A stretch of 64,000 nt of DNA, from the NCBI GenBank assembly GCA_035551995.1, contig DASZME010000083.1, positions 61,220 to 125,219 on the forward strand, written 5' to 3'. This DNA is from Tepidisphaeraceae bacterium (GTDB taxonomy: Bacteria; Planctomycetota; Phycisphaerae; Tepidisphaerales; Tepidisphaeraceae). The notes beneath the pieces were generated by a model. The model saw only the letters and a program-made list of their open reading frames with translations, was not told the origin of the DNA and did not search any database. Every line of letters begins with the position of its first letter. The first letter of the stretch is position 1. Positions 34,488 to 51,984 of this stretch are shown one piece after another. The position numbers and the translations under genes were made by a program.

Positions 34488-34749
34488 CGTCGAACAATTA
34501 CCTTTCCGACGCGCCGGCAAGCGGGGCGGCGCGTGAATCACGCGCGCTTCGCGCGCGTCGTATCGATGCCCACGCGTCGCTCCCGCGATCGCGCCGCCGG
34601 AGGGTACCGTCCGCGTGGCGTCGAAGATAGTCACGCGATGCGATCCCGTTCGCTTTGACGTCCATTTTCGCATATAATTTCACGCTCTGGCAATGGGCCC
34701 GGCGACTGTCACGAAAACAGCGCGGCGGGCCGTTTTTCGCGGAATTATT

Positions 34750-37467
34750 ATGGCTGAACCAACGCCGACTCCACCCTTTCAGGAACGCATCGAAGACCTC
34801 AGCATCGAACAGGAGCTTGGGGATTCTTATCTGACCTATGCCATGAGCACCATTATGGACCGGGCGCTGCCCGACGTTCGCGATGGGCTGAAGCCGTCCC
34901 AGCGCCGAATATTGGTGGCGATGAACGATCTGAATCTGCGGCCGGGCTCGAAGCACCTCAAGTGCGCCAAGATCGCGGGCAATACCTCCGGCGATTATCA
35001 CCCGCACGGCGAATCGATCGTCTACCCGACGCTCGTGCGTCTCGTGCAGCCGTGGAGCTTGCGCTATCCGCTCATCGACGGCCAGGGCAACTTCGGCAGC
35101 ACCGACGGCGATCCACCCGCCGCCATGCGTTATACCGAGGCCCGCCCAACGAGCGTCGAGCAGGAAATGATGGTCGACTTGAATCTCGACACGGTCGATT
35201 ATCAACCCAACTACGATGATCGCCTGCTCGAGCCGACCGTGCTGCCCGGCAAGTTCCCCAACCTGCTGGTGAACGGATCGACCGGCATCGCCGTCGGCAT
35301 GGCGTGCAATCTGCTTCCGCATAATCTGCGGGAAATTTGCGACGCCATCGTCAAGGTGATCGACAATCCGGACGTCTCGCTGATGGACTTGATGGAAAGC
35401 GTTCCCGGTCCCGATTTCCCCACCGGCGGCATTATCTGCGGCCGCGACGGCATCCTCGAAGGCTACAAATCCGGCCGCGGGCGCATTACCCTTCGCGCCA
35501 AAATTCACGTCGAAGAACAAAAGGGAACCAAGACGCTGGTCGTCATCGACGAGATTCCGTACGGCGTCATTCGTAAATCGATTCAGATCGCCGTCGCCGA
35601 GTGGAAGAACAAGGACCAGTTCAAGGAAGTATCGGCAATCAACGATGAATCGGGCCGGCATCATGCCGTCCGCATCGTGCTCGATTTAAAGCGCGACGCC
35701 GACCCGGACGTGGTGATCGCGCAGCTCTATCAATACACGCAATGCCAGATCACGGTGCCGATGATCAACATCGCGCTGGTGAATCGCCAGCCGCGAACGA
35801 TGGGATTGAAGGAATTGATCCAGCACTTCATCGCCCATCGCGAGGTCGTGATCACCCGGCGGACCAAGTTCCTGCTGCGCCGGGCGCAGCAGCGCGAGCA
35901 TATCCTGGAAGGGTTGATCTTCGCCGTCTGCGATATCGACGAAGTCATTCGGCTCATTCGCTCGAGCAAGACTCGCGAAGAGGCGATCGAAAAACTGATC
36001 CAGCAGGGATTCCGGATCGATCCCAACAGCGCGCTTCGGGAAAAACTGCCGGAACGGATCATCTTTCGGCATCCAAAGATTTTCGCGGTCGAGCCGGGCG
36101 AACCGATTTCGCCGTTCCGCGTCTCGCGCGCGCAGGCCGAGGCGATCGGAAGATTGCAGCTGATTCAGTTGGTCGGCCTGGAGATCGATAAACTCGTCAA
36201 CGAATACAAGACGGTGGCGGAAGAAATTGAAGAGTACGAAAAAATTCTCGGCGATCATGCTTACCTGATGGATCTGATCCGCGAAGACGTTTTCGAGATG
36301 AAGGAAAAATACGGCGACGCCCGCCGAACCGAAATCTCCGGCTCCGTCACCGACATGAACATGGAAGACCTGATCGCCAAGGAAGACGTGGTGGTCACGG
36401 TAAGTCACGGCGGATACGTCAAGCGCCTCACGACCGACACCTACCGCAGCCAGGGCCGGGGCGGTCGCGGCATCAAGGGAACCGAATCAAAGGAAGGGGA
36501 TTTCGTCGAGCATCTTTTCATCGCCAATACGCACGATTACCTGCTGTTCTTCACCAACCAGGGCCGGGTGTACGAACGGCGGGTTTATCATGTGCCGGAA
36601 ATGAGCCGGACAAGCCAGGGCCGATCGATCGCCAACCTGCTTTCGTTTCAGCCCAATGAAAAAGTGGCCAACGTGCTGGCGATCAAGGATTTCACCAGCG
36701 GCGAACATTTCCTTTTGTTCGCGACGGCCAAGGGCACCGTGAAGAAAACAGCCCTCAGCGCCTACGCCAACATCCGCCAGAACGGCATCATCGCCATCGG
36801 CATGGAAGAGGGGGACACACTGATCGACGTCGCCGTCACCAGCGGCAAGGACCACGTGATCCTCGGCACCAAGAGCGGCCTTGCGATCCGTTTCGAGGAA
36901 TCCGACGTCCGCGCCATGGGCCGCCCCGCGGGCGGCGTCACCGGCGCCCGCTTCAAGCGCGAGGGCGACGCCGTCGTCTCCATGCTCATCGTTCATCAGG
37001 GCGACAACGAAATGTACAAGGTTTTAACCGCCTGCGTGAACGGTTACGGCAAGCGCACGCCGCTCGACGCATACCCGGTCAAAGGCCGCGGCACCCGCGG
37101 CGTCATCGATATCCTCACCACCGAACGTAACGGCGACGTGGTCGGCATGAAGTTGATCAAGGATTCCGATGAAGTCATGTTCATCACGGAAAAGGGAATC
37201 CTGATGCGCACGCCCGTCGGCGAAATCCGCGAGACCGACCGCAACACCCAAGGCGTCCGCCTGATGCGGCTGGATGAAGGCGATCGCCTGGTTGCGATGG
37301 CCTGCGTGGCGGCCGAAGAACCCAAGCCCGCCGAGGGCGGCGACGGCCAAGCCCCGACGGTGGTCAGCACCGAGCAGACGCTGATTGAAGAACCGCAAAT
37401 TCCGGAGGATGCCGAGCGCGGAGCCGATGGGGAAGATTCCAACGATGACGAGGCGGCGCCGGATTGA
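34750..37467 (+). CDS. gyrA: DNA gyrase subunit A
   Basis: The N-terminus reads [42 protein letters not shown]. The active-site Tyr region is present (AAMRYTEAR). The GyrA box is present ([10 protein letters not shown]). Six C-terminal beta-pinwheel blades are present, with an acidic tail. The start is the ATG at 34750 (MAEPTPTPP). Confidence 0.9.
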
Positions 37468-37605
37468 GGTCAAGGCGTCTCCAGGAATTAACCAGGGTTC
37501 GGCGGGCTTGGGCTCGCGGCCAGCAAAGGTCGGGCAAACGAAGGCGTATGGTGGCCAAGAACCGGCGCCCAAGGATCGGGGTTTGCCGAAGCGGATAATC
37601 CAATC

Positions 37606-38742
37606 ATGTCAGACCCGCGGCGCATCGTCGAAAACATCCGCGTCTTCATGACGTCCGGGGCCGGCGCGGCGGCCGCGCCGATCGCGGCGGTGGCGGTCGA
37701 TTATGCGGAACTCTGCCGCGACGCCAACCTGCGCCTTCAACGCTGCGCCGAATTTCTTCATGAAGGATTGGTCGGCGAAGCGGTCGAATTCGCGGCGGTT
37801 AGGCCGCCGCTGCTGGAGCTAATCGCGACGCTTGATTTTCAGGAGGTTCCCGCCTGGGAGCAAGCCTGCGCTCAGATGGGCATGGCGCGGGCCGCGCGAT
37901 TGGAGCTGAATACCGCGATCATGTTAAACGCCGCCCGCGAGCGCCACGAGCCCATTAAGGAACTGCTCGGAAGGTATCGCTATCTTGCTTTGGCCCGGGC
38001 GCCGCTGACCGAACGTCTTACGACGGCTTGGCGCCTCGCCGCGGCCGATCCGTCCAGCGTCATCTGGCGCCAGGAAGCCGAGGAGCTTGAAAAATCCCGC
38101 CTGATCCAGCTTCGCGTCGAAGCGTCGGCCGCCATGGAAGCCAACGACGTGCAGCAGATGGATAAGCTTCTGCTGGAGCTTGGCGTGGGGCGCTGGCAGG
38201 CGTTTGCCGCCTTGGAATTGAAGGAGACTTTGCATCGCGCCGTGACGGGCGTGCGCTACGCCGGCGCCATTTCGCGGCTGAACGCGACCGTGCCGAAAGT
38301 TCGCGAGGCATTCGCGGCCAAGTCCCTGGAACAGTGCCAGGCCGTTTTCGCGCAGTGGGGAAAAATCGTCAAGGAATCGCGCGTCGTCGTGCCGGTCGAT
38401 CTGCGCCAGCACATCCTGCCGCTGGCGCATTGGATCGACGAGGAGGAGGAACGACGCGCCCACGAACGCAAATTCCGCTCGGCATGCAGCCAGCTTCTCG
38501 ACGCGGTCAAGCGGCAGGCGCCCGTCGAGGAAATAAAGGAATGTTATCGCGCGGTCGCCGCGTTTGAATCGCCGATACCCCAGGACGTCGCCGCGGCCTA
38601 CGACCACGGCGTCGAGACGGCGCGCCTGGCGAAAGCAAAGGAACAAAAAAAACAATACGCGTTGGCCGCCGCGCTGGTGGGAGCCATCGTGGCGGCGCTG
38701 GGCACGCTGACCTTCGTTATTTTCAACGGCGGAAAGCGGTAA
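37606..38742 (+). CDS. Hypothetical alpha-helical protein with a C-terminal transmembrane anchor
   Basis: The ORF is 378 aa. It is helical and Ala/Leu/Arg-rich but compositionally protein-like. The C-terminal transmembrane helix reads YALAAALVGAIVAALGTLTFVIF. No family was recognised. Confidence 0.45.
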   Translation: MSDPRRIVENIRVFMTSGAGAAAAPIAAVAVDYAELCRDANLRLQRCAEFLHEGLVGEAVEFAAVRPPLLELIATLDFQEVPAWEQACAQMGMARAARLELNTAIMLNAARERHEPIKELLGRYRYLALARAPLTERLTTAWRLAAADPSSVIWRQEAEELEKSRLIQLRVEASAAMEANDVQQMDKLLLELGVGRWQAFAALELKETLHRAVTGVRYAGAISRLNATVPKVREAFAAKSLEQCQAVFAQWGKIVKESRVVVPVDLRQHILPLAHWIDEEEERRAHERKFRSACSQLLDAVKRQAPVEEIKECYRAVAAFESPIPQDVAAAYDHGVETARLAKAKEQKKQYALAAALVGAIVAALGTLTFVIFNGGKR

Positions 38743-38763
38743 GCGCCGGACGGCCGAGACCTA

Positions 38764-38843
38764 GAGCGTTTCTCATGCTGGTGAAGCGACCTTGCGTCGC
38801 GAAAAACGCCCCGCAAGCGGGGCCGCTAAACACAGAAACGCGC
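38764..38843. repeat. Family-B REP-like repeat, copy B4 (inverted orientation)
   Basis: The reverse complement reads gcgtttctgtgtttagcggccccgcttgcggggcgtttttcgcgacgcaaggtcgcttcaccagcatgagaaacgc. It matches B2 and B3 including the distal CAtg[ar]aaa motif. Confidence 0.45.
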
Positions 38844-38949
38844 GAGCAACCTGACAACCGCTCTAATAAAAACGATTCACCTGTGGATTAGGTAGCGATG
38901 CTCGCCGCGTGACTATTTTTATGACCCGCCACGTCTTAGAATTGCGACG

Positions 38950-40602
38950 GTGATAAATGTGAAAGCCGATCTCTCCGTTGCTTTTCTGAAAGCCGCGTCC
39001 TTCTTATTCATACTGTCGTTCGGGATCGCTCTGCCCGCCGTCGCCGACGATCAGCCCAGGTCACTTCTTTCCAACGGCGATTTTCAAAGCGTCTCTTCCG
39101 ATTCCAACTGGCCTCAGGATTGGCCGCGGGCCGATGGAGTGACCTTCGAGCAGGAGGAGGGGCAGCGTTTCCTGCGCCTGCATTCGAGTAAGCCGGGGCA
39201 GATGATCCTCGTCTATCGGCAGATGCCGATCCCTTCGCCTCGACCGGCGGCTCTGGAGGTTTGTTTCCGCGTTCGCTATGCGGACATTAAGCCCGGCGAG
39301 AAATCCTGGTATGACGGCCGGATCATCTGCCATTTCAAGAATCGCGACAACGACGTCGTCAAACCCGAACCGCCCACGCCGTCCTTTCATGGCGGTTCGG
39401 ATAAGTGGGTCGAGCGGGACTACTTTGTAAAAGTGCCGGGCGGCGCGAAGTTTTTGGAAGTGATGCCGTGCCTGTTCCATCCCGCGAGCGGGACGCTGGA
39501 GATCGCAAAATTCGCGGTGTTCGCGGCCACCGCGGACAAACTGCCAAAGCCGCCGCCTGTTATACCTTCCGCTTTGGTCGCTTCGACGATCCCGGCGGAT
39601 CGAGTGCCGCCGGAACTCCACGTGGTCGGCAATGAACTCCAGTCGGCGGCAGGAAAAACAGTTTGGCTTCAGGGGCTGTGCGTCGACAGCATGGAATGGT
39701 CGGGAGCGGGGGAGCACATCGAGCAGTCGATCGTCGTCGCCATCGATCAGTGGAAGGCGAATGTCATTCGTCTGCCCGTGACCGAGGAGTTCTGGTTCGG
39801 CCGTAATCAGTGGCAGCACGACGGCGGCATCGCTTATCGAAAGCTGGTGGACGCGGCGATCGATACCGCCGCCGCGCGCGGAGGCTACCTTGCGCTGGAC
39901 CTTCATCGATTTGGAGCGCCGATGCCGGCGCATAAGGAGTTCTGGACCGACGCCGCCACGCGATACAAAAATCGTCCCGAGGTGATCTTCGAGCTTTTCA
40001 ACGAGGCGCACGGCGTCTCATGGAAAACCTGGCGCGACGGCGGTTCGCTGAAAGACCCCGCCGCCGCCGGGAAAGACGCCAACGCCGCGGAAAACAGCGA
40101 AACCGAAGAGGGCGAAACATCCGTCGGCATGCAAGCGCTGCTCGGCGCCATCCGCGCCGCCGGCGCCCGCAATCCAGTCATCGCCGGCGGATTGGACTGG
40201 GGCTATGACCTTTCAGGCGTCACAAACGGCTTCGCCCTGAAAGACGACGACCGCGCCGACGGCGTGATTTATTCCAGCCATATCTATCCTTGGAAAAAAG
40301 ACTGGCGCGGGAAGGTTCTTTTGGCCGCTGAAAAGTATCCGATTTTTGTCGGGGAAATCGGGTGTCCGCTGGAGCGTATGCCGTTCATTCCGCCCGCGCA
40401 GCACGAAGATCCTTATACCTGGGCGCCCGACGCGCTTGGCTTCATACAGAAGTACAAGTTGAATTGGACCGGCTTCAGCTTTCATCCCAAGTGCGCGCCG
40501 ATGGTCATCAGCGATTGGCGGTATACGCCCACGCCATATTGGGGCGCGTTCGTCAAGGATGCGCTATCGGGAAAGGCGTTTCTGTCGGACAAGATGCGGT
40601 GA
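38950..40602 (+). CDS. Secreted glycoside hydrolase family 5 protein (cellulase-like) with an N-terminal carbohydrate-binding-like domain
   Basis: A signal peptide is present (FLKAASFLFILSFGIALPAVA). The GH5 catalytic acid region is present (VIFELFNEAHG). The nucleophile region is present (PIFVGEIGCP). The TIM-barrel spacing is conserved. The start is a GTG at 38950. Confidence 0.75.
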   Translation: MINVKADLSVAFLKAASFLFILSFGIALPAVADDQPRSLLSNGDFQSVSSDSNWPQDWPRADGVTFEQEEGQRFLRLHSSKPGQMILVYRQMPIPSPRPAALEVCFRVRYADIKPGEKSWYDGRIICHFKNRDNDVVKPEPPTPSFHGGSDKWVERDYFVKVPGGAKFLEVMPCLFHPASGTLEIAKFAVFAATADKLPKPPPVIPSALVASTIPADRVPPELHVVGNELQSAAGKTVWLQGLCVDSMEWSGAGEHIEQSIVVAIDQWKANVIRLPVTEEFWFGRNQWQHDGGIAYRKLVDAAIDTAAARGGYLALDLHRFGAPMPAHKEFWTDAATRYKNRPEVIFELFNEAHGVSWKTWRDGGSLKDPAAAGKDANAAENSETEEGETSVGMQALLGAIRAAGARNPVIAGGLDWGYDLSGVTNGFALKDDDRADGVIYSSHIYPWKKDWRGKVLLAAEKYPIFVGEIGCPLERMPFIPPAQHEDPYTWAPDALGFIQKYKLNWTGFSFHPKCAPMVISDWRYTPTPYWGAFVKDALSGKAFLSDKMR

Positions 40603-40690
40603 TGAAGTCACCGTCGCAAACACTCTGAGGCCGGGCGCACTTGCGCCATAATTTTGAATCTCGCCGCGCGGTGGAACGCCCGCCGCGGCT

Positions 40691-41950
40691 TCATGGCGGA
40701 TCATCCCCGTGCAAGACCCAATTCCACGTCGGAACATTCCGGCAAGGCGGAAGGTTCATGCGCCGGCGAAGGCCGGCCGTCCATTGGTTTTTGAAATTCT
40801 CGGCCGATGAGAAGCGAATCAACCTTTTGCCGGCTTCGCTGACCCGCCATGTAGCCGCCCGGTCCAGACTGGCGCCAAGCGCATCGGAGAAAGCGGCGGA
40901 GTCCAACACGTTAACGGTCCAGCCCATCTTGAATTTCGGGATCATCCGCCCGAGCCAGGCGGTATCGGAAGCCAGCGTGGGTCGTCCGCACGCGAGCGCT
41001 TTGAGGGCGATGCTCGCCGGGTGTGGCTGATGCGGGTAGGTGCAAACCACCACGTCGGCCGCCCACAAGGCCGCAGCAATTTCCCGCTCGGACAATACAC
41101 GGTCGATGACGATCAGCCGGCCCGCGGCGCAAAGAGCAACGCACGGATCGCGCTTGAGCGTCGCGGCGACGTCCGGCGCCGCCGGGCCGGCGAGCACCAG
41201 CCGATCCGTCGGCAAAAGCGATGCGCTCGACAACGCGCCGATCAACAACGGTATTCCTTTGCGATTGTCGAGCAAGCCGGGGCAGACGAGGTATCGGCCA
41301 TCTTCGGGAATCCCAAGGACCTTGCGAGCCTCTGCACGCGATATCGGAGCATATTCTTCGACGGGATCGGGAATCATATCGACGCGATCGCGCAGGCCGC
41401 CGCCGTGCGTTTGAATCCATTGCCAGGCAAGGGCGTCGATCAAATGAATCCTGGCGAAGGGTGACTTTCGCAAAGCCAAAAGGGAGAGCGCGGTGGACGC
41501 GGAACGGGCGCGACGGACATTGGGATCGGACAACCGGGCCGTTGAGTTTGGGTAGGCGAACGCGAGTCGGTTGATCGAGCATTCACAATAGACGTTTCGG
41601 GGAATCGACAGCAATCCCGCCATCTCCGCGAGCCCCGCCGCCTGAGCGATACCGTCGGCGGTGACGACATACACCACATCGGGGCGAATTTCCTTCACCG
41701 CCCGATTTAGATTGGCGACGGCGTCGCGAATTCCGTTGAACGTTCCGCCTCGGCCGGGGCGCAGGATCGGCCGCGCGTCCAGCCCGCCGGGAATGGAGGA
41801 GAGATGAACGCGAAATTCCGGCGACGCGAATCCCTCGGGCGTAATCGCCATGACCGTCTCCGCGCCAAGCGCGCCGACGGCGCCGATCAAAAGCCGATCG
41901 TAATTGTAATAGTGTCCGAGATGATTTTGTTCGACGATGAGCACACGCAT
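40691..41950 (-). CDS. GT-B fold glycosyltransferase (GT1/GT4-like)
   Basis: The N-terminus reads MRVLIVEQNHLGHYYNYDRLLIG, which resembles a sugar-acceptor domain. A C-terminal Rossmann-like domain is present (LVLAGPAAPDV...ALACGRPTLASD). The ORF is 419 aa. Confidence 0.65.
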   Translation of the reverse strand: MRVLIVEQNHLGHYYNYDRLLIGAVGALGAETVMAITPEGFASPEFRVHLSSIPGGLDARPILRPGRGGTFNGIRDAVANLNRAVKEIRPDVVYVVTADGIAQAAGLAEMAGLLSIPRNVYCECSINRLAFAYPNSTARLSDPNVRRARSASTALSLLALRKSPFARIHLIDALAWQWIQTHGGGLRDRVDMIPDPVEEYAPISRAEARKVLGIPEDGRYLVCPGLLDNRKGIPLLIGALSSASLLPTDRLVLAGPAAPDVAATLKRDPCVALCAAGRLIVIDRVLSEREIAAALWAADVVVCTYPHQPHPASIALKALACGRPTLASDTAWLGRMIPKFKMGWTVNVLDSAAFSDALGASLDRAATWRVSEAGKRLIRFSSAENFKNQWTAGLRRRMNLPPCRNVPTWNWVLHGDDPP

Positions 41951-42046
41951 GAGTTGCCGAAACGGTGACCTTAAAGAGAACCCGAAAAATCAAAAAAACC
42001 GCCGCCGGAGTATATCACACGTCGATGCTTTACATCGGCTCCGACA

Positions 42047-43885
42047 GTGGGGCCAACCGGAACGGCGGCGAGCGTTTTCGCCGCGACCGACACTCCGGAA
42101 ATTGCGCTATTATACGGCGATTCCGATACACTCGTGCGCGTGAGATCGCGCTCCGTGTACCTGATCGCCGCGATGCTTGTCGCGCTGGCCGGCTATGCCT
42201 GCCGGTGTCAGGCGCCCTTGATCTGGGACGGCGCCTATCAGTTTAACGCAACGCTGATCATGCAGCGGCCCTACATGTACGAGACGCGGTTTCATACGCT
42301 TTTATTCTGGTGGCCAACCGTCTGGGCCAGTCGGCATTGCGCGTCGGTCGCGGTTCTGCAATCGCTGTTCGGGCTGCCTTTTCTATTGGCCGCGCCGGCG
42401 AGCCTTTTGATGTCGTGGTGGATCGTGCGGTCGCACGCGCCGCGCCTGATCTTCTGGGCCATTTTCGGCATGGCCGCTTGCCTGCCGGGCCAGATTTTCG
42501 TCATCAACGACAGCACCGTTCTGGTCTACCTGTTTTGGCCGGTTTTTCTGGGGCTGTTTGTGCCGCTGTCAGGCCTCAAGAAATGCGCGCTCGGATTTCT
42601 ATGCCTGTTTCAATTCATTCATCCGCTGGGCGTTCTTTTACTTGCGGGAGCGACGGGAACCGCATTGGCGATGAGTGTGATCGATCCGGCTCATCGTCGG
42701 CGCCTGCTGCTTCGGGCGTCGGTGATGGGCGCCGTTTTTTCGGTCGCGGTGTTCAAGATCGCGATAGTGGCCGAGATGCGGCAATTCGACGACCCGTACG
42801 CCGTTCGCGAGGCGACGCTCGGAATCTCGGTTCGGCGGTGGGAATGCGGGGTGGCGGGATGGCCGTTAAGGGGATTGTGTTTTATCTGGGCGGCCGGCGC
42901 GCTCGCGCTCCTGGCGCAAATGCCCCAGCGTCGATTCACACGGCGTTTGGTCGTGAACGTGAGCGTGGCGTTTGTGCTCGTCGTTGTTTTCATCGTCCGG
43001 ACATTCGGATTTGACGAGCCGGATCGAGCGGATGAATTCACCGCATTGGCGATCGTTTACCTCGGCATACTGCTCGTCGGCCGGGCCCGGCGAACTGCAA
43101 TAATCGCGGCGTCGGTTTTGCTGGGCGCCGGTTGCGTCGGCGCCGCCCTGGAGTTGCGTCAAGGCTCCATCCATGGCGCCGATCTGGCGGCGGCCGTCGC
43201 GGACTGCGCCATCCTTTTCTTCTCATGGCTCTGCATGCGACGCTTGCGGGAGCATGCGAAAACCCTTGGCGCCATCGCGGTATTCAGCGCGCTCATCGGC
43301 GCCGCCTTTTGGATCTACTGGGCCGCCGACGCCACGCGCTGGGGTTACGCGCTGGATTACCGCAGATGGATCGGTCCGCTCGCTTTGCCATTTTTCGCTT
43401 TCGCGGCCATCGACGTGTTCTTGAGCGCGCGGACGCGTTTGCGAAGCACGGCGCCGTCGGTTATGGGCGTGCCCGAATGGCTGGCGGCGACTGTGATCAC
43501 CGCGTTCGTCATCGTCCTGTCGCTTCAATATACCCAGTGGCGCCAAATGACAAATCGGCTCATGAGCAGCGTTCGGCAATATCCATCGGCAATCGTGCCG
43601 ATATCTTCCATGCCCTGGATAGGCCATACCGCTCTGGATCACTGGAGCACATTTGATTTCGTGATGAGCCAGCAAGGCAAGGCGCCGGCGAAATTTCTCC
43701 TGAACGATCACTCGTTGGAAATGCTGCGCCAAACGCCGCCGAAACTCCCGCATTGGGATTTATGTCCCTACTTGTCGAATGATTCGCCGTCGCCCGCCCC
43801 GGGGCCGATGGGTTGGTATGACATGCGGCCCTTGCTGGCGAATCCCCGGAAAGACTCCCGCGCCGGACCCGCCTCCAAAACCTAA
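42047..43885 (+). CDS. Large polytopic membrane protein of unknown function (612 aa, more than 12 transmembrane segments); candidate polymerase or translocase of a glycan pathway
   Basis: The protein is a continuous run of hydrophobic helices with short Arg-rich cytoplasmic loops and a soluble C-terminal domain. The start is uncertain. No motif was recognised. Confidence 0.45.
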   Translation: MGPTGTAASVFAATDTPEIALLYGDSDTLVRVRSRSVYLIAAMLVALAGYACRCQAPLIWDGAYQFNATLIMQRPYMYETRFHTLLFWWPTVWASRHCASVAVLQSLFGLPFLLAAPASLLMSWWIVRSHAPRLIFWAIFGMAACLPGQIFVINDSTVLVYLFWPVFLGLFVPLSGLKKCALGFLCLFQFIHPLGVLLLAGATGTALAMSVIDPAHRRRLLLRASVMGAVFSVAVFKIAIVAEMRQFDDPYAVREATLGISVRRWECGVAGWPLRGLCFIWAAGALALLAQMPQRRFTRRLVVNVSVAFVLVVVFIVRTFGFDEPDRADEFTALAIVYLGILLVGRARRTAIIAASVLLGAGCVGAALELRQGSIHGADLAAAVADCAILFFSWLCMRRLREHAKTLGAIAVFSALIGAAFWIYWAADATRWGYALDYRRWIGPLALPFFAFAAIDVFLSARTRLRSTAPSVMGVPEWLAATVITAFVIVLSLQYTQWRQMTNRLMSSVRQYPSAIVPISSMPWIGHTALDHWSTFDFVMSQQGKAPAKFLLNDHSLEMLRQTPPKLPHWDLCPYLSNDSPSPAPGPMGWYDMRPLLANPRKDSRAGPASKT

Positions 43886-44067
43886 TAATGTCTCACGCCG
43901 ATGCCATCTGATCAGTGCGGCTGCGCTTCACTTTCCCCAGAGCTTTCCCGTCCGGACCGATGGCCTCGTTCGGAGGATCGAAAGTCACGACAGTTTCGCA
44001 AACAACCCATTCAAATCGAGCGTGAATCCCGGCAGAACCGCGCCGCCGGTGAGGATACGACCGGGCG

Positions 44068-44307
44068 TCAATCGAGTCGATCGGCTTCAAGCGGCGCAGC
44101 ATCAGGCACTGCCGCCAAAAATTTATCGAAATCCTCTTGACGGCCAGCTTGTGATTCGCGGCGCAGGTAATCGACCGTCGTCATGACCGCCAGTTTTTCG
44201 CCGGCGGCGCTGGCAAAGAATTGGCTGATCGAGTAACCCTCCTGCGCGGCAAGGGCTTCGATTTGCTTAGTAAGTGAATCGGGAAGTTCGATCGTAAGCG
44301 TGGTCAT
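44068..44307 (-). CDS. Putative antitoxin (small DNA-binding protein) paired with the upstream PIN toxin
   Basis: The protein is 79 aa (MTTLTIELPDSLTKQIEALAAQEGYSISQFFASAAGEKLA...). Its start overlaps the PIN-gene stop by 4 bp (ATGA). Whether the fold is RHH or Phd-like cannot be decided by eye. Confidence 0.5.
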   Translation of the reverse strand: MTTLTIELPDSLTKQIEALAAQEGYSISQFFASAAGEKLAVMTTVDYLRRESQAGRQEDFDKFLAAVPDAAPLEADRLD

Positions 44308-44726
44308 GTTTTCTTCCGCAAAAGGCCCAGGAAATCGCAAGGGCGCACCGCTACGATGCCCAATTCCTCCGCGCGCCTGAAGTGCCTTCTATAGTGCGAA
44401 ATAATATGCCTGCAACCGGCGGCGAAAGCCAGTTCCAGGACCATATCGTCAATTCGATCCGGCAGGAAAGGCCGCCAAAGGAAATGAATCTCCTGCAGGT
44501 GCGATTGGCCGGCGAGATAGCGAACGAACTGAACCGCGTCTTCGGGCATAAGGCCCGAAGGAAGATTTTCCGGGCGGGAGAGAACCTCTCGCCATTCGGC
44601 GTAAAGGGCGACGGAGAGGCATGGCTGAAATAACGACGATGGAATAGAGCTTATCAGCGCAAAACTCGCGCCACGCCTGGAGCGTGCCGCGGCGACAAGC
44701 ACGCTGGTGTCAAAGACTACACGCAT
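44304..44726 (-). CDS. PIN-domain toxin (TIGR00305-type putative toxin-antitoxin toxin component)
   Basis: The N-terminus MRVVFDTSVLVAAARSRRG carries the first acidic residue of PIN. The region LPDRIDDMVLELAFAAGCRHIIS carries the central acidic residues. The C-terminus reads AVRPCDFLGLL. Confidence 0.7.
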   Translation of the reverse strand: MRVVFDTSVLVAAARSRRGASFALISSIPSSLFQPCLSVALYAEWREVLSRPENLPSGLMPEDAVQFVRYLAGQSHLQEIHFLWRPFLPDRIDDMVLELAFAAGCRHIISHYRRHFRRAEELGIVAVRPCDFLGLLRKKT

Positions 44727-44852
44727 CGGCGAAGATCCGATCATTTTATTCCGTTCCAGTCGCGTTGCCGTTGGGATCAACACGTTTTTGTCGTGGCGAA
44801 CTTCGTTTGCCGCGTGCGGCCCCTTCGCGTTTGTTCCGGGCTCGCGTGTTTT

Positions 44853-47081
44853 CTATTCCGCCGGCGATTTCAGATCCTTCCGCAGTTGCAAGAGCATCGC
44901 GTCGAACAGACCGTCCGCCACTTTAGTATCCGTCCCCTCCGCCGCCCGCTGCCAGACGCTGATGGCGAGGCTGGCGTAGCGTTCGGTCGCGAACGGCTGG
45001 CGATCCATCGGCGTTAACAGCTTGGCGAATTCCCCAAGCTGCCCGACGGGAAGGTCTTTGCATTGGTCGGCATACTGCCCCAACTCCTTCACCAGCGACA
45101 GCAGGGGAGCGAAACGCTTCTGGATCGCCGGCCAGCGAGATATCGGCGTGAGATTCTCTTCGGCGAAACCATCGAACGCGGCGGCGGTGGCGTCGCGATA
45201 CGGGACGATCAACGCCGTCAGCTGATCGGGACTGATTGACCAGTCGGCCCAGCGCGAAAGCGACGGCGCCTTGGCCAATCCCGCTTCGACGTCGCCGGCC
45301 ATGCGCAACGCGTCGTACAGTTGGCGCAGCGTGTCGAGCTTCAATAAGTCCGAAATTTCCATCTCCTTGCCCGAAGCCAGTTGTGACGCCAGACTGCCGA
45401 TGAGGGTGGCGCGCTGCGCGTCAACCGCCGACAGACGGCCGTGAGCGTAGGTCTTGATCGTTTCGGAGGACAACCCGGTCGGCGTCACGATCGAGTCGGC
45501 CAGTCGGGCCAGCCGCTCGACGTCGGCGAGGAATTTAGCCGCCGCGTCCCGTCCGTTGACGACGCCGGTCGAGCTGAGTTCCCCGGCCGCGGAGACCGCT
45601 CGTTTTTCCAACCCGCCGGTCGGGCGCGGGCGATACGGCGCCAGCGCCGCGATCGCGTGAGCCGACGGTTCGATGACGGACAAACTATCGAGATATTGCC
45701 GCATCGATTCGACGCGATTTACCAGCCCGCCGGGAGTGGGGGCGCCGGCGGCGAAGGGGTTGGCGCCGGCGCCGAGAGCTGCCGCGTCGTCGAGAAAGTT
45801 CGCGCGCTGCGCGGCGAATTGCTTTTGAAGGGTCTCCACCGCCTTCTTCTGGGCGAACGGAAGCGCGATCGGCTTGCGGGCGTCGAAGCGCGTGCAGAGC
45901 TGTAGATATTTTTCGATGGCGCCAAGAACTTTGCCGCCCGAATCCGGATTGGCGTTTGCCCAGGTGAACGTGGGAGACAGCTTTTGCAAAAGAGCGGCGG
46001 GAAGGCGCATGCCCTGAAGCTGCATGAGCAATTGCCGATATTGGCTCAGCGACGCGACGCGACTCTGGCCGGCCGCGCGGGTTCGCACGTCGGTGAACAA
46101 CGCCAGCCCCTCGGTCAATTGCTGCTCGATCTTCGGCCGGGCGGCGGCGTCGACGCCGGTGTTGTGCGCCAGGCCCTCGGCCAGTTCCGTCGAAGTCGAA
46201 AGCATCTCGTACAGGGCCTCGGCGTCCGGCGATGCGTTGTCTCCGGCGGCGGGCGCCTGAGCGGCGGCGGCGAGCGACTGCAATTGCTTCCTCAACGCCG
46301 GCGAGATGTCCAGCGTGCGGCCGAGCGAAGCCAGTTCCGCGATCGTCGGCGGGCGCGTGGCCGAGGGTTCGGTCGTCGGCGCGGTCGTGGCGATCACGAT
46401 GTTTCGGGGGCGCATCGGCGGAAGGTTTTTGATTTCGACGGGATTGGGATTGGAGATGAGAATCAACGCGGTCGCCACTTTTCGACTGACGTCGTCGACC
46501 GTGCCGACGGTGGCGCCGTCCGGCAATCCGTATGTGAGATCGTGAAGCGATTTGAGTCCGTGGAGTTGGCCGGGCGTGAGCGACTTGGCGAAATTTTGCA
46601 GCCGCTCGCCGACGTGGTCCGCGGCGGATTGAAGACTGATCACGCGAAGCGCGACACATGCCTGTAGCGATTCATCGACATCCTTTTGATCGCGCGGCGC
46701 CGATTGCCTGGAGGCGCTGGCTTCATTTTGCGGCCTGGTCGCCGGCCCGCCGTCGTCGGATGAAATGGGCGCCGGGGGCTCCATCGCGCCGCTCAGCATC
46801 CATCGCTCGACGAGGCGCGTATCGATTTGATAATCGATGATGGCCAGGGCCGGACCGGCGGCGTCCGTGCGGCGCTGCAGGAGATTGGCCAGCTCCGATT
46901 CGATCGTGTTGACGCGCTCCTGAAACACTTCGCCGGGCGTGGACGGCGGCGGTGGAGGCGGCGCCACCAGGGCGGGGGCGGCGAATAAGGCCGCCGCGCA
47001 AAAGACCCATGCGAGGGCGACGCCCGTCGCCCAGGCGTACGATCGGGGCTGGCGCCGCCGAGAAAAAGGCGTGGTTTGCAT
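44853..47081 (-). CDS. Hypothetical 742-aa exported or anchored protein (Ala/Leu/Gln-rich, helical), function unknown
   Basis: An N-terminal signal-anchor is present (YAWATGVALAWVFCAAALFAAPALVA). The ORF is long with consistent codon usage. It lies 42 bp downstream of a GT4 gene and directly upstream of the PIN gene on the same strand. Confidence 0.5.
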   Translation of the reverse strand: MQTTPFSRRRQPRSYAWATGVALAWVFCAAALFAAPALVAPPPPPPSTPGEVFQERVNTIESELANLLQRRTDAAGPALAIIDYQIDTRLVERWMLSGAMEPPAPISSDDGGPATRPQNEASASRQSAPRDQKDVDESLQACVALRVISLQSAADHVGERLQNFAKSLTPGQLHGLKSLHDLTYGLPDGATVGTVDDVSRKVATALILISNPNPVEIKNLPPMRPRNIVIATTAPTTEPSATRPPTIAELASLGRTLDISPALRKQLQSLAAAAQAPAAGDNASPDAEALYEMLSTSTELAEGLAHNTGVDAAARPKIEQQLTEGLALFTDVRTRAAGQSRVASLSQYRQLLMQLQGMRLPAALLQKLSPTFTWANANPDSGGKVLGAIEKYLQLCTRFDARKPIALPFAQKKAVETLQKQFAAQRANFLDDAAALGAGANPFAAGAPTPGGLVNRVESMRQYLDSLSVIEPSAHAIAALAPYRPRPTGGLEKRAVSAAGELSSTGVVNGRDAAAKFLADVERLARLADSIVTPTGLSSETIKTYAHGRLSAVDAQRATLIGSLASQLASGKEMEISDLLKLDTLRQLYDALRMAGDVEAGLAKAPSLSRWADWSISPDQLTALIVPYRDATAAAFDGFAEENLTPISRWPAIQKRFAPLLSLVKELGQYADQCKDLPVGQLGEFAKLLTPMDRQPFATERYASLAISVWQRAAEGTDTKVADGLFDAMLLQLRKDLKSPAE

Positions 47082-47123
47082 GCTTCGTCTCTCTCTGTTG
47101 TAGACGGCGATGTCCGCCGGGGC

Positions 47124-48293
47124 TTAGGCCGGCCGCATGGAATTCCGATACACGTGCTCCAGGGCCTCGACCATTACACTCGCGTCAAATCGGGCCAGGG
47201 CGAACGCGCGGCCGGTTTCCCCCATCCGGCTCCGCAGGGCCGGATCGCCCAATAATACTTCAAGCGCCGCCGAAAGTCCGGCGCCGTCGAACGGCCGAAT
47301 CGCGAATCCGCTCTGGCCGTCCAAAAGCCCTTCACGATTGCCGTCGATGTCAAAGGCGATCACCGGGCATCCCGCCAGCGCCCCTTGCGGCAACGCCCGC
47401 GCCAAGCCTTCCCGCCGGGACGGATGAACCAGGATATCCATCGCGTTCGTCAACTCCGGCACCCGCGACGGCGAAACCAGTCCCGTGAGGATAAACCGAT
47501 CCTTCAAACTCATGCGCGCGATCTCTCGCTCAAAATCAGCCCGAAGCGATCCGTCGCCGACCCAGAGAAATCGCAGGTTTGGATACTTCCGGCATAACCC
47601 CGGCGCCGCCGCGAGCAGATCGGCATGCCCCTTGAGATCGAATAGTCGAGCGATCGTCCCCACCGCCACATGCTCATCGGCAAGGCCAAGACCGCGGCGA
47701 ACTTCGGCGCGGCAAATCGGCGGATCGAGAAACGGCGCCGTCTTCATCCCGCTGTAAACGGTCACATATTGATCCGTCCGCCCCACGTTTTGCGCAAGCG
47801 ACCGCTCAGCCATGGCGTCGGCGACGCAGACGATTTTCGTGGTGATCGGCGCCGTGAATTTCTCGGCCAGCCGATACACGTCGTTGACGATTTTTCGCGT
47901 CGACGCCGTGAACGCCAATCCATGAATCGTATGAACGATCACCGGCACGCCCGCCTGATATGCCGCCCATCGGCCGATGATGCCCGCCTTGCTGCTGTGG
48001 GTATGAACGACGTGGGGCTTGATCTGTCGCAGGCGGCGGATGAGCCATCGGTACGTCCGCCAATCCTGCGTGGGCAAAACGCTCCGACGCATGGCGTCGA
48101 TCGTCTCGACGCGATACCCATAAGACGCCGCTCGCTCCATCAACGACCCCTCGGGCCCCAGCGCCGGGCCGGCGATCAGCGTGACGTCGTGGCCGCGATC
48201 GTGCTGGCCTTCGCAGGAAAGCAGCGTATTTTCCTGCGCGCCGCCGACGATCAGACGGGTGATGACGTGGACGATTGTCATAGCGAAAGTCAT
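47124..48293 (-). CDS. Glycosyltransferase family 4 (GT-B fold)
   Basis: The N-terminus reads IVHVITRLIVGGAQENTLL. The C-terminal EX7E-type region reads HPSRREGLARALPQGALAGCPVIAFDIDGNREGL. Confidence 0.8.
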   Translation of the reverse strand: MTFAMTIVHVITRLIVGGAQENTLLSCEGQHDRGHDVTLIAGPALGPEGSLMERAASYGYRVETIDAMRRSVLPTQDWRTYRWLIRRLRQIKPHVVHTHSSKAGIIGRWAAYQAGVPVIVHTIHGLAFTASTRKIVNDVYRLAEKFTAPITTKIVCVADAMAERSLAQNVGRTDQYVTVYSGMKTAPFLDPPICRAEVRRGLGLADEHVAVGTIARLFDLKGHADLLAAAPGLCRKYPNLRFLWVGDGSLRADFEREIARMSLKDRFILTGLVSPSRVPELTNAMDILVHPSRREGLARALPQGALAGCPVIAFDIDGNREGLLDGQSGFAIRPFDGAGLSAALEVLLGDPALRSRMGETGRAFALARFDASVMVEALEHVYRNSMRPA

Positions 48294-48345
48294 TGTCCCC
48301 GGCGGGGCTGCGGCGCCGGATCGTCTCGATTCGCCAAAGGCCGCT

Positions 48346-49959
48346 TCAGTCGAACAATCTCGGCTGCCTGGGATCGTCGGCGATGGATTCGATCTGTCCG
48401 TCGGCCAGGCGCGTTTGCAATCGGTCGCCCGGTTTAACTTGTTCGACGCTTCGGATAAGCGACCCGTCTTTTTTGCGGAAGGTCATGCTGTAGCCGCGCT
48501 GCAATACGTTGCTGGGATTGAGGGCCTGGAGTTGGCGCTCAAGGGCGTCGAGGCGCCGGCGCCGTTCCAGAAAACCGGACTGCGCCGCTCGATTGAATCG
48601 ATCGATCGACGCCTTGAGCCGCTGGCTTTGCAGGCGGACGCCGAACTTCGGATGGCAATCGCCCAAGCGGCTTGCGGCGCGGTTGACCCGGTCGTTCGCC
48701 TGACGAACGCGCCGGCTCAGGGCCAGCAGGAGATTGCGCTGTAACGTGGCAAGCCGATCGCCCAGACGATTGATCGCCGCGGGCATCTGACGATCGAGCC
48801 GGCCGTGAATTTCCTGCACGCGCCATTGCGTCTGATGCAGGCGATGGACGACGGCGGTCGTCATCGTGCGCTGCCGGTCGTCAAGAACTTGCCGAAGCGA
48901 ATTGATCCGCTCCATCGGCCGGCGGAAAACTTCGTGGCGTTCGATATTCTTGAGGCGCTCGCGGCATTCGGTCAACCGTTTTGAAAAGCCGCGGCCAAGC
49001 CGCAGCGCCGTCACGTCAAGCTCGTCGCGCACATCGCGCCAATGTCCCGACACGATTTGGGCGGCTTCGGTCGGCGTATGCGCGTGATAATCGGCCGCGA
49101 GGTCGGCGATCGTCACATCCACCTCATGGCCGATCCCCGTGATCACCGCCACGCGGCTGGCCGCGATCGCGCGGGCGACCGGCTCTTCGTTGAACGCCCA
49201 TAGGTCTTCCAGCGATCCGCCGCCGCGCGCCAGCAGAATGATGTCGGCCGATATCTCGTGCGCGCAACGGCTGACGTGCGCAATGGCAGCCGCGATTCGC
49301 CCCGCCGCCGCGTCCCCCTGAACCGGAACCGGGTAAACCATGAGCCGCAGCCACGCATACCGGCGGAGGACTTTCAAGATGTCCTGCAGCGCCGCGGTGC
49401 TCGTTCCCGTCACCAGCACGATCGTCATCGGATATCGCGGCAGCGGTTTTTTTCGCTCGGCCGCGAACAGCCCCTCGGCTTCAAGTTTCGCTCGAAGTTG
49501 CCCAAAGGCCAACTCCAGCGACCCCTTGCCCAGCGGCCGCAGGGTTGTGACATACAGTTGATAGCGCCCCTGCTTGCCGAAGACCGCGACCTTTCCGGTT
49601 GCAATCAGTTCCAGGCCGTCGGTCGGAACGAATTTCAAACGAGCCGCGTCGCTCTTCCACATCACGCAGTCGATGCAGGTAGCGGCATCTTTCAGCGTGA
49701 AGTATACATGCCCCGACGAGTGGTTTGGCCGATAGTTGCTGATCTCGCCGCGGACGTAAACAGTGTCCGGCACGCCTGCCCTGACGGCTCGATCGATTCG
49801 ATTGGTCAGTTCCGAAACGGTGATGGCATCGATTGACGTCTGCTTGCTCGCGCCGGGCGGCCCGGGCGATCCCGTCGCGGGAAGTTCACGGGGCCGAATT
49901 TCCGCGCGGGGTTTGCGCGTGGCCTGCTCGCGAAACTCGAAGAATCCTCCATGAGACAT
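48346..49959 (-). CDS. xseA: Exodeoxyribonuclease VII large subunit XseA
   Basis: The OB fold is present (VYVRGEISNYRPNHSSGHVYFTLKDAATCIDCVMWKS). The catalytic core is present (ARGGGSLEDLWAFNEE ... ITGIGHEVDVTIADL). The C-terminal coiled coil is present. Confidence 0.85.
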   Translation of the reverse strand: MSHGGFFEFREQATRKPRAEIRPRELPATGSPGPPGASKQTSIDAITVSELTNRIDRAVRAGVPDTVYVRGEISNYRPNHSSGHVYFTLKDAATCIDCVMWKSDAARLKFVPTDGLELIATGKVAVFGKQGRYQLYVTTLRPLGKGSLELAFGQLRAKLEAEGLFAAERKKPLPRYPMTIVLVTGTSTAALQDILKVLRRYAWLRLMVYPVPVQGDAAAGRIAAAIAHVSRCAHEISADIILLARGGGSLEDLWAFNEEPVARAIAASRVAVITGIGHEVDVTIADLAADYHAHTPTEAAQIVSGHWRDVRDELDVTALRLGRGFSKRLTECRERLKNIERHEVFRRPMERINSLRQVLDDRQRTMTTAVVHRLHQTQWRVQEIHGRLDRQMPAAINRLGDRLATLQRNLLLALSRRVRQANDRVNRAASRLGDCHPKFGVRLQSQRLKASIDRFNRAAQSGFLERRRRLDALERQLQALNPSNVLQRGYSMTFRKKDGSLIRSVEQVKPGDRLQTRLADGQIESIADDPRQPRLFD

Positions 49960-50147
49960 CAGTACAAGTATACGCGATGAGGGGCGCTCCTGCTTCCTTT
50001 AGCCGCCGTGATGACACTGCCGGGACCTGAACGGACACGGCCTCTTTTCCCTCGCGGCGATCGTCGCTCCAACGATCGGCCTTGCCGTGGCGTATTTACA
50101 AATGCGTCGCAGCATTTCGCCAGCGGTTTTCACGGAAAGGTCGTGCG

Positions 50148-51713
50148 ATGAACTCCTTCGTCCATCGTGCAGGACATGATACGGCGATTGGCCGTCTGAT
50201 CGTCGCAACGCTTGTTCTGTCGGCGATGACCGCCGCGCTGCATGCACGCGATCATTGCGCGCCGGGCGCCTGCGCGGCGGCCGATGCCGCTGAACCTCCC
50301 GCGGGGCCGTCGGGGAATCTTCATCCGATCCCCTCGGCGGATGCTCTAGCCGGGGCGCTTCAGGGGCTGAAGGAAATTTTCAAACCCTATCCTCCCGCCA
50401 AGGCGGAAGACAAAATCAAGGTCGCCGAAAAACTGATTTCCGACAACGAAAAGAGTCCCGGCGATCTCAATTCACAATATGTGCTCTTGCACGAGGCCGC
50501 GGAATTGTTCGCCGCCGCCGGTGACCTTCCGGCGGCGCTCAAAGCCGTGGACGATCTGGCCGGCGTTTTCGCGATCGACGTCGCCCAGGAGAAACTGTCC
50601 ATCCTCAAGCGGGCGAAAGTCGGCCGTCTTTCCCCATCCGCGGCGTCTGCATATGCCGACGCGACGCTGACGCTGGGATGGGGCGCGATGCGCCGGGGTG
50701 ATTTTGAAAGCGCCAACCGGGCGGTTTCTTTGGCGGCGGGCGCGGTGCACGAGGCGCAAGATCCAAAATTGACGTCGGCCGCCCAGGCGCTGACAGCCGA
50801 AGCCCACAGGGCGCTTGGCGAAGCGGGACAAGCAAGAGCCGCCGAAGAAAAGCTCAAAACTCAGCCAAACGATCCGTCGGCCAATCTCGGCGCCGGCCGG
50901 TTCCTCTGTTTTTATCGCGGCGATTGGACGCGGGGTTTGCCGATGTTGGCCAAAGGCTCGGACCCGACGCTCAAGGCGCTAGCGGAAAGCGACTTGGCGC
51001 CTCCGACCGACGCCGACGCGCAACTTGCGCTGGGCCAAAAATGGGGCGAATTGGCCGGCCGGGACACGACCTTTGCCCGCGCTCAACTTCGCCAACGTGC
51101 GACGTACTGGTATGCGTTGGCCGAAGCGGGACTCGGCGGACTCAAAAAGGTCCTGGCCCAGCGCCGCATCGCCGATCTCAATAGATCCGACGCATCCGAT
51201 CCCGCCTCTTTCACCTCGCGGGAACTGACACTTGCGAAGTTGCTTAATGATCCTTCGCACTGGATCGTCAAAAACGGGAAATGGGACAACGCCACCGGCC
51301 GCTTCCACGGCGAAGGCGACGCCGAGATCGACCTGGATACGCCGTTGCCGCCGGACATTGTTTTTAGTTTTCATATCAACGTCATCAGTGGCTCGCGTCC
51401 GCGAATGCATTTCGAGGGGACGGGAATGACTTTCGCCAACGAAGGGCGTGGGAGAAATCTGTATCCGCACGGCACGAAAGCGCCCGAGCCGCATTTTATG
51501 TATGAGAACAATCAGCCCCATGCGCTGAAATTCAAATTGGCCGCGAATCATTTTGAGATCGCCATCGACGGCAACACCGCGTTTACGGGAACGTATAAGG
51601 CCGCCAAGTCCATCCACCTGAGGCTGCGCGCCGGCGATAGCTGGAGCCGAGGAACGACTGAATTTTGGGGATTCGAGGTGGAGTCGCTGCCGAACGGAAT
51701 GGGCGGGAAGTAG
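50148..51713 (+). CDS. Hypothetical secreted protein with an N-terminal helical/TPR-like region and a C-terminal beta-sandwich-like domain
   Basis: The ATG at 50148 gives a signal peptide (MNSFVHRAGHDTAIGRLIVATLVLSAMTAALHA). The C-terminal segment WIVKNGKWDNATGRFHGEGDAEIDL...HFEIAIDGNTAFTG resembles LamG/3-keto-disaccharide-hydrolase-type beta-sandwich domains. Confidence 0.5.
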   Translation: MNSFVHRAGHDTAIGRLIVATLVLSAMTAALHARDHCAPGACAAADAAEPPAGPSGNLHPIPSADALAGALQGLKEIFKPYPPAKAEDKIKVAEKLISDNEKSPGDLNSQYVLLHEAAELFAAAGDLPAALKAVDDLAGVFAIDVAQEKLSILKRAKVGRLSPSAASAYADATLTLGWGAMRRGDFESANRAVSLAAGAVHEAQDPKLTSAAQALTAEAHRALGEAGQARAAEEKLKTQPNDPSANLGAGRFLCFYRGDWTRGLPMLAKGSDPTLKALAESDLAPPTDADAQLALGQKWGELAGRDTTFARAQLRQRATYWYALAEAGLGGLKKVLAQRRIADLNRSDASDPASFTSRELTLAKLLNDPSHWIVKNGKWDNATGRFHGEGDAEIDLDTPLPPDIVFSFHINVISGSRPRMHFEGTGMTFANEGRGRNLYPHGTKAPEPHFMYENNQPHALKFKLAANHFEIAIDGNTAFTGTYKAAKSIHLRLRAGDSWSRGTTEFWGFEVESLPNGMGGK

Positions 51714-51756
51714 CCTGGGCGATTCTCTTGCATGCGCTGGTCTGGATATGAATGAA

Positions 51757-51935
51757 CTTGCGCGATTACGCGCTCTACTCCCTCGCCCGGTAATCCGGGA
51801 GAGAGGGTTGGGGTGAGGGTTTTTTGAAATGATGCGAGCCGTATAAAATGCGCGAGCTATCAAAGAAACCCTCACCCTGTTCTCTCCCGGAGTGCCGGGT
51901 GAGGGTTTAAGAGAAACGCGCGTGATCGCGCAAGG
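51757..51935. mobile_element. Family-A MITE-like element, copy A2 (inverted relative to A1 and A3)
   Basis: The left end is cttgcgcgattacgcgc. The first hairpin is ctccctcgcccgg-taat-ccgggagagagg. A gtgagggtttttt...aaaccctcaccc internal palindrome follows. The second hairpin is tctcccgg-agtg-ccgggtgaggg. The right end is gcgcgtgatcgcgcaagg. Its reverse complement aligns with the A3 right half. Confidence 0.55.
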
Positions 51936-51984
51936 TTATTTTAGATTAAATGTCGATCGTCTGTCTATTAAAGGAGAAGTAAGC

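Follow-up and report, generated by a model that had tools for sequence, protein, structure and literature searches.

Do the genes found between positions 38950 and 48293 of a 64,000-nucleotide stretch of Tepidisphaeraceae DNA (contig DASZME010000083.1; hereafter, the window) form one locus devoted to the assembly of a glycan, as an earlier note based on the letters alone had proposed? They encode a secreted GH5 glycoside hydrolase, a stand-alone GT-B glycosyltransferase, a polytopic membrane protein of 612 amino acids (aa), a PIN toxin with its ribbon-helix-helix (RHH) antitoxin, an exported helical protein of 742 aa, and a GT4 glycosyltransferase (Table 1). The answer we favor, with moderate confidence, is that these genes make up a mosaic, each unit of which was inherited separately, within a housekeeping region in the chromosome of a soil planctomycete of the Tepidisphaeraceae, and that its parts act as proposed below. 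The units are the GH5 gene, the GT-B gene, the 612-aa gene, the PIN-RHH pair, and the pair formed by the GT4 and 742-aa genes.

The gene models were checked against the list of open reading frames (ORFs), Pfam, NCBIfam, the PDB sequences, and the public gene calls, which assign the window to a Tepidisphaeraceae metagenome-assembled genome (MAG; Planctomycetota, Phycisphaerae; locus tags VG326_*). All the ORF coordinates given previously were found to be correct, and the domain calls (GH5, the two GT-B/GT4 glycosyltransferases, the PIN and RHH pair, and xseA) were upheld by Pfam. Since the genes occur on alternating strands, positions 38950-48293 cannot be one transcript; the only run of co-directional genes is the series xseA-GT4-742aa-PIN-RHH, for which a single transcript had been suggested earlier. 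The gaps of 40-70 bp reported for this run hold for xseA-GT4 (52 nt) and GT4-742aa (42 nt), but not for the spacer between the 742-aa and PIN genes, which is 126 nt long because the PIN gene most likely begins at the ATG at 44726; a gap of 69 nt is obtained only with an upstream GTG as the PIN start. The GT-B and 612-aa genes are divergent and separated by a 96-nt spacer.

The neighborhoods of the 612-aa family were sampled at 17 loci from genomes and on six contigs with annotation, and no glycosyltransferase neighbor is common to them. Their contexts are variable and mostly unrelated to glycans (MarR, pirin, AIR synthase, MatE, ABC transporter, and others), and all-against-all clustering of the ORFs of the 17 loci revealed no common neighbor except generic GT4 genes, which lie within 10 kb of the 612-aa homolog in 4 of them. 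No homolog of the GT-B gene was found near any relative in this sample, and an ortholog of the GH5 gene (59% identity) was present at a single one of the 17 loci, L014, 5 kb from the 612-aa relative. The idea of one glycan or envelope assembly locus is not supported by these neighborhoods. The linkage of the two large proteins to glycosyltransferases in other genomes, which the earlier note had proposed as a check, fails in the case of the 612-aa protein and was found only in that of the 742-aa protein, as described below. The 612-aa gene works as a stand-alone gene with at least one paralog in the genome (VG326_18465, 47% identical, in the same MAG).

The GT4 gene and the gene for the 742-aa protein

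According to its structural model, the 742-aa protein consists of helices throughout, and a hydrophobic segment is found at its N-terminus. It matched no Pfam family, which agrees with the previous description of a helical protein of unknown function. The homologs carry classical cleavable Sec signal peptides, and the protein is for this reason more likely to be exported than signal-anchored, as had been supposed. No internal repeats were detected by block-wise hhalign, and a search with the family profile gave no match among the PDB sequences.

In five of the seven informative lineages (L023/24, L025, L026, L029, and L034), an orthologous GT4 gene is located directly upstream of the 742-aa homolog and in the same direction. 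The GT4 orthologs are 62-75% identical in these lineages vs. 26-52% in the case of the 742-aa homologs. A narrower alignment added four loci of 742-aa relatives, and a profile search for further members of the family yielded no new ones. The xseA gene is not upstream of GT4 in L023-L025. In these same loci, a gene encoding a PIG-L deacetylase follows the 742-aa homolog with a 4-nt overlap between stop and start, and in L033 it follows after 124 nt. The PIG-L deacetylases of the relatives reached 184.4 and 177.7 bits against the BshB1 equivalog model, the cut-off of which is 182.5. An S-adenosylmethionine (SAM)-dependent methyltransferase gene, convergent to the PIG-L gene, is also present in L023-25.

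The adjacency might be simply a gene order inherited in one Phycisphaerae family, with no functional meaning; the 742-aa protein would then be a periplasmic protein peculiar to this lineage and have nothing to do with glycans. The 742-aa family is small, with 10 clusters that without exception come from metagenomes of the Phycisphaerae type, and the protein is exported, while the GT4 and PIG-L proteins are cytoplasmic; however, the adjacency has been kept down to 26% identity between 742-aa homologs despite a complete turnover of the other neighbors, and the stop of the 742-aa homolog overlaps the PIG-L start in L023-25. We regard a purely inherited order as rather unlikely.

The ancestral unit is likely to have comprised the GT4, the exported helical protein, and an LmbE-type deacetylase, the first two of which have been kept in the window. 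This three-gene order is the signature of a pathway for the transfer of N-acetylglucosamine (GlcNAc) followed by the removal of the N-acetyl group. Modules combining a GT4 with a PIG-L/LmbE protein are those of bacillithiol (BshA/BshB1), mycothiol (MshA/MshB), and the glycosylphosphatidylinositol (GPI) anchor (PIG-A/PIG-L), and the units of L023-25 and L033 likewise end in PIG-L. Unlike these modules, the relatives have an exported helical protein between the GT4 and the deacetylase, no BshC was seen, and the GT4 proteins of the family score far under the cut-offs for BshA (50-75 vs. 273.7 bits) and MshA (67-78 vs. 462.5). The assignment of the window GT4 itself to BshA or MshA was rejected, given its scores of 49.9 and 67.1 bits, respectively, and the lack of a PIG-L gene in the window. 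Its best NCBIfam match was TIGR03088 (146 bits, below the cut-off of 409), and its matches in the PDB were PglA (E 7e-21) and PimA.

Under this reading of the GT4-742aa unit, the GT4 would make an N-acetyl-hexosaminide in the cytoplasm, which would then be de-N-acetylated where the PIG-L deacetylase is present, and outside the cytoplasm the exported 742-aa protein would have the product as its substrate or partner. Several observations weigh against it. The adjacency has been lost in two lineages which still keep the 742-aa gene (L020/21 and L022/27/28), no PIG-L gene was found in the window, and the model of the 742-aa protein is only moderately confident and matched nothing specific.

A more ambitious proposal would be that the GT4, the 742-aa protein, and the BshB1-like deacetylase constitute an undescribed glucosamine-based glycoconjugate pathway in Phycisphaerae and, separately, that the 612-aa family is a GT-C family new at the CAZy level and confined to soil bacteria of the Planctomycetes-Verrucomicrobia-Chlamydiae (PVC) group. 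This we consider a long shot. Such a pathway could yield a glucosamine (GlcN)-lipid, a molecule resembling an anchor, or the backbone of a new low-molecular-weight thiol, and the 742-aa family would supply a new component outside the cytoplasm. According to Hiras et al. (2018, PMC6282198), Planctomycetes lack any documented or predicted low-molecular-weight thiol. The conserved order GT4, exported helical protein, BshB1-like deacetylase provides a concrete, testable, and still unexplained lead to a putative glucosamine-containing product in Planctomycetota.

The 612-aa protein as a candidate GT-C(A) glycosyltransferase

No sequence relative of the 612-aa protein was identified in Pfam, NCBIfam, or the PDB, and the previous statement that it belongs to no recognizable family is borne out. 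Its sole NCBIfam match, to a helicase (E 0.014), was discarded as spurious. The family comprises 75 clusters according to a word-indexed search and 637 representatives at 50% identity according to an exhaustive profile search, 336 of which have E ≤ 1e-30. The genomes carrying these matches belong to Tepidisphaeraceae, Phycisphaerales, and Verrucomicrobiota (Chthoniobacterales). No description of either the 612-aa or the 742-aa family was found in the literature.

The helices of the AlphaFold2 (AF2) model (pLDDT 87.4, pTM 0.88), taken together with the positive-inside rule, give about 15 transmembrane (TM) helices, with the N-terminus inside and the C-terminus outside, which fits the more than 12 helices counted earlier. 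Members of the GT-C(A) class have a conserved seven-helix N-terminal module (PMC13503287), behind which the C-terminal module varies, and their first luminal loop contains two helices, the first of which bears the catalytic base (PMC13503287; PMC6801728). The first outward loop of the model (residues 54-100) contains two helices (61-72 and 83-95), and an acidic residue, D61 of the WDGAYQ motif, opens the first of them, as a single Asp and not as a DxD. D61 was found to be invariant in the 52 close and the 57 wide sequences aligned (down to approximately 23% identity), and G62, R81, and W124 are likewise invariant in the wide alignment. All the invariant polar residues (D61, R81, H83, N154, S156, H192, R439, R440, and H532) are in loops predicted to face outward, as is the C-terminal tail of approximately 110 residues. 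The residues R439-x4-P444 are similar to the Rx4-14P motif of GT-C enzymes (PMC6801728). Judging from the model, the 612-aa protein is quite likely to be a GT-C(A)-fold membrane glycosyltransferase belonging to an undescribed family; its fold is probably glycosyltransferase-like and not transporter-like, and the protein is so probably glycan-related.

The evidence against this assignment is of several kinds. At the level of sequences and profiles, the 612-aa family has no link to any GT-C family, that of the GT87 gene in the window included. No Pfam family, whether of the GT-C kind (PMT_2, GT87, Glyco_transf_22, etc.) or not, was matched by the protein or by 10 distant relatives scanned singly, the 52 close and 57 wide relatives gave scattered weak matches to families other than GT-C, none of which recurred (best E 0.001), and the family profile matched only a G-protein-coupled receptor (GPCR) among the PDB sequences (E 0.07). 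Nor was any similarity to the GT-C(A) enzymes ArnT, ALG9/ALG12, AftA/AftB/AftD, and AglB/PglB found in Pfam, NCBIfam, or the PDB. The TM helices number about 15 vs. 11-13 in most eukaryotic GT-C(A) members, one Asp is present where GT-C enzymes carry DxD or DE, and neither a GT2-type polyprenyl-phosphate sugar synthase nor a flippase was found near the 612-aa homologs at any locus. When the model was compared with the PDB using Foldseek, only non-significant matches to transporters were obtained (best E 3.9e-3, TM-score 0.10-0.17).

The protein might instead be a transporter or some other polytopic membrane protein, its resemblance to GT-C enzymes resulting from helical packing; we consider this explanation improbable. 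No significant fold match to MFS, MATE, or any other transporter was obtained. The earlier suggestion that the two large proteins could be polymerase-like or scaffold-like found no support, and the fold matches include neither Wzy nor WaaL nor a polysaccharide co-polymerase (PCP). Polymerases and ligases of the Wzy/WaaL/SEDS type resemble the candidate in spanning the membrane many times and in working, as the candidate would, on glycans carried by lipids at its outer face.

If the 612-aa protein is a GT-C(A) enzyme, we infer that its donor would be a sugar linked to polyprenyl phosphate and taken up from the periplasmic side, as in the inverting outer-face transfers of this class, with D61 as the putative catalytic base and the outward Arg and His residues (R81, H83, H192, and R439/R440) holding the donor phosphate. 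The acceptor might be chosen by the variable C-terminal half and the periplasmic tail. A family that was truly GT-C would be a sizeable, uncatalogued addition to the enzymes decorating envelopes from lipid-linked sugars. It is often represented by several paralogs per genome, and Phycisphaerae and Chthoniobacterales are abundant soil lineages with a poorly known envelope chemistry.

A GT87-family (PimE-like, GT-C) membrane glycosyltransferase is encoded just upstream of gyrA (33252-34673, minus strand; Pfam GT87, 9e-9). This member of the GT87 polyprenol-phosphate-mannose transferases and the candidate 612-aa enzyme would be alike in being GT-C membrane enzymes encoded by stand-alone genes of the same housekeeping region. 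No relationship between the 612-aa profile and the window GT87 was detected by hhalign (probability 0.1), and these would be two unrelated GT-C-type genes lying about 8 kb apart.

The long-form 612-aa paralogs P0002, P0005, and P0008, which come from three lineages, share a divergent upstream gene encoding a TauE/SafE (TSUP) transporter (Table 1). This gene is absent next to the 612-aa copy in the window.

The PIN-RHH pair and the other genes

The toxin-antitoxin pair announced in the earlier note is real, with its order corrected: along the minus strand, RHH follows PIN, and the TGA of the PIN gene overlaps the ATG of the RHH gene as ATGA at 44304-44307. An overlap between a PIN gene and the gene for a small DNA-binding antitoxin is the arrangement of type II systems. 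The 140-aa PIN and 79-aa RHH models are both present in the public gene calls; PIN_3 scored 57.8 bits (cut-off 27) and RHH 20.1 bits, just below its cut-off of 20.5.

Homologs of the PIN protein (37-40% identity) were found on 71 plasmid records in the same toxin-first order. They are annotated there as "toxin-antitoxin system toxin component, PIN family" and are directly followed by an RHH gene annotated as "HicB family antitoxin." Among these TIGR00305-type modules are those of Methylosinus trichosporium pOB3b1, in which the 4-nt ATGA overlap also occurs, and Sphingobium fuliginis pSF4. The window copy is chromosomal. Both of its proteins align end to end with their plasmid counterparts (29-35% identity in the case of RHH). 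In a three-sequence alignment, residues D6, E44, D90, and D93 of the PIN protein were conserved, and I-S-H-Y-R-R-H-F replaced the V-T-H-N-x-R-D-F of the plasmid proteins, His occurring in place of the last conserved Asp; going by this substitution, the window PIN may have lost some or all of its toxicity.

The G+C content (GC) of the pair is 0.55-0.57 (PIN, 0.567) vs. 0.60-0.65 in the neighboring genes, and that of the third codon positions (GC3) is 0.55-0.62 (RHH, 0.55) vs. 0.71-0.79. Since the GC is lower than that of the neighbors and the module is also plasmid-borne, the data suggest that a horizontally acquired toxin-first module was inserted here. It sits where the relatives carry the PIG-L gene. 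A plasmid-type module of lower GC looks like an insertion, and not like the stabilizer of the locus it had been suggested to be.

Table 1. Positions of the genes in the stretch, and of two genes accompanying homologs at other loci.
Feature	Position	Strand	Match
Secreted GH5 glycoside hydrolase	38950-40602	+	Pfam Cellulase E 7e-26, residues 233-513
Stand-alone GT-B (GT4-like) glycosyltransferase	40691-41950	-	Pfam Glyco_trans_1_4 4.6e-9, C-terminal half only
612-aa polytopic membrane protein, candidate GT-C(A)-fold glycosyltransferase	42047-43885	+	No Pfam family
79-aa ribbon-helix-helix antitoxin	44068-44307 (ORF 44068-44340)	-	Pfam RHH_1 6e-4
140-aa PIN_3 (TIGR00305-type) toxin	44304-44726 (ORF 44304-44783)	-	Pfam PIN_3 2.3e-15
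742-aa exported all-alpha-helical protein	44853-47081	-	No Pfam family
Cytoplasmic GT4 retaining-type glycosyltransferase	47124-48293	-	Pfam Glycos_transf_1 + Glyco_trans_4_4 (full GT4)
xseA, exonuclease VII large subunit (housekeeping, context only)	48346-49959	-	Pfam Exonuc_VII_L 3e-96
PIG-L deacetylase after 742-aa homolog	L023 11032-11697; L025 6454-7119; L033 2346-3020		
TauE/TSUP transporter by long-form 612-aa paralogs	L001 8959-9732; L035 6583-7359; L036 4402-5229		

The GH5 protein has a signal peptide and, in its N-terminal part, a domain of approximately 190 aa without any family match, which a Pro-rich linker joins to the GH5 catalytic domain; its PDB matches are GH5 endoglucanases (E 1e-12). 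The ortholog at L014 (2663-4906, in a Verrucomicrobiae MAG) gave two separate tblastn matches to the N-terminal domain (residues 6-190 of the window GH5), which it thus appears to bear twice, and the ORF list at this position suggests that there are frame breaks. The GT-B is named "glycosyltransferase family 4 protein" by NCBI. Directly upstream of the GH5 gene, a 378-aa protein with a C-terminal TM segment is encoded at 37606-38742 (plus strand); it matched nothing in Pfam or NCBIfam and appears from its sequence to be largely helical.

That positions 38950-48293 are one envelope or exopolysaccharide locus, with the 612-aa protein acting like a polymerase or ligase, the 742-aa protein as a scaffold, and the toxin-antitoxin pair as a stabilizer, is very improbable. 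In favor of this view, carbohydrate-related genes number five among the eight, GT4, 742aa, PIN, and RHH point the same way and are closely spaced, L014 has its GH5 ortholog, and a GH5 gene is divergent from the GT4-742aa pair in L023-25. However, there is no flippase, polymerase, co-polymerase, chain-length regulator, outer-membrane exporter, or GT2 in the 64-kb window, and of the components that a classical assembly locus (Wzx/Wzy-, ABC-, or synthase-dependent) encodes together, namely an initiating transferase, a flippase or ABC exporter, a polymerase or synthase, and PCP/OPX, none was recognized at 38950-48293 or in the flanks. Taken as a whole, the region does not represent a new kind of polysaccharide locus.

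The GH5 and GT-B genes converge on a spacer of 88 nt, in which a GC-rich hairpin with a T-rich tail behind it (40634-40657, plus strand) is a possible bidirectional terminator, although such sites are no commoner than chance in the region, where the scan yielded 20 terminator-like sites (14.8 ± 3.4 expected) and 3 promoter-like ones (3.4 expected). No Rfam RNA families were found in 36000-52000.

The housekeeping genes of the window are dnaG, rpoD, trpD, nfeD/floA, galK, tmk, holB, mutY, those of RNase R, gyrA, xseA, and hisI. A 543-aa protein that matched nothing in Pfam or NCBIfam and has a hydrophobic segment in its N-terminal part is encoded divergently from xseA (50082-51713, plus strand). 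One candidate for an initiating transferase, and no other, is encoded in the window: an MraY/WecA-type polyprenyl-phosphate N-acetylhexosamine-1-phosphate transferase about 15 kb upstream of position 38950 (22992-24302, plus strand; Pfam Glycos_transf_4, 7e-33). A 2335-aa ORF at 82-7089 (plus strand), in which four or more DUF11 repeats and one SdrD B-like domain were recognized, probably encodes a very large protein of the surface or adhesin-like kind.

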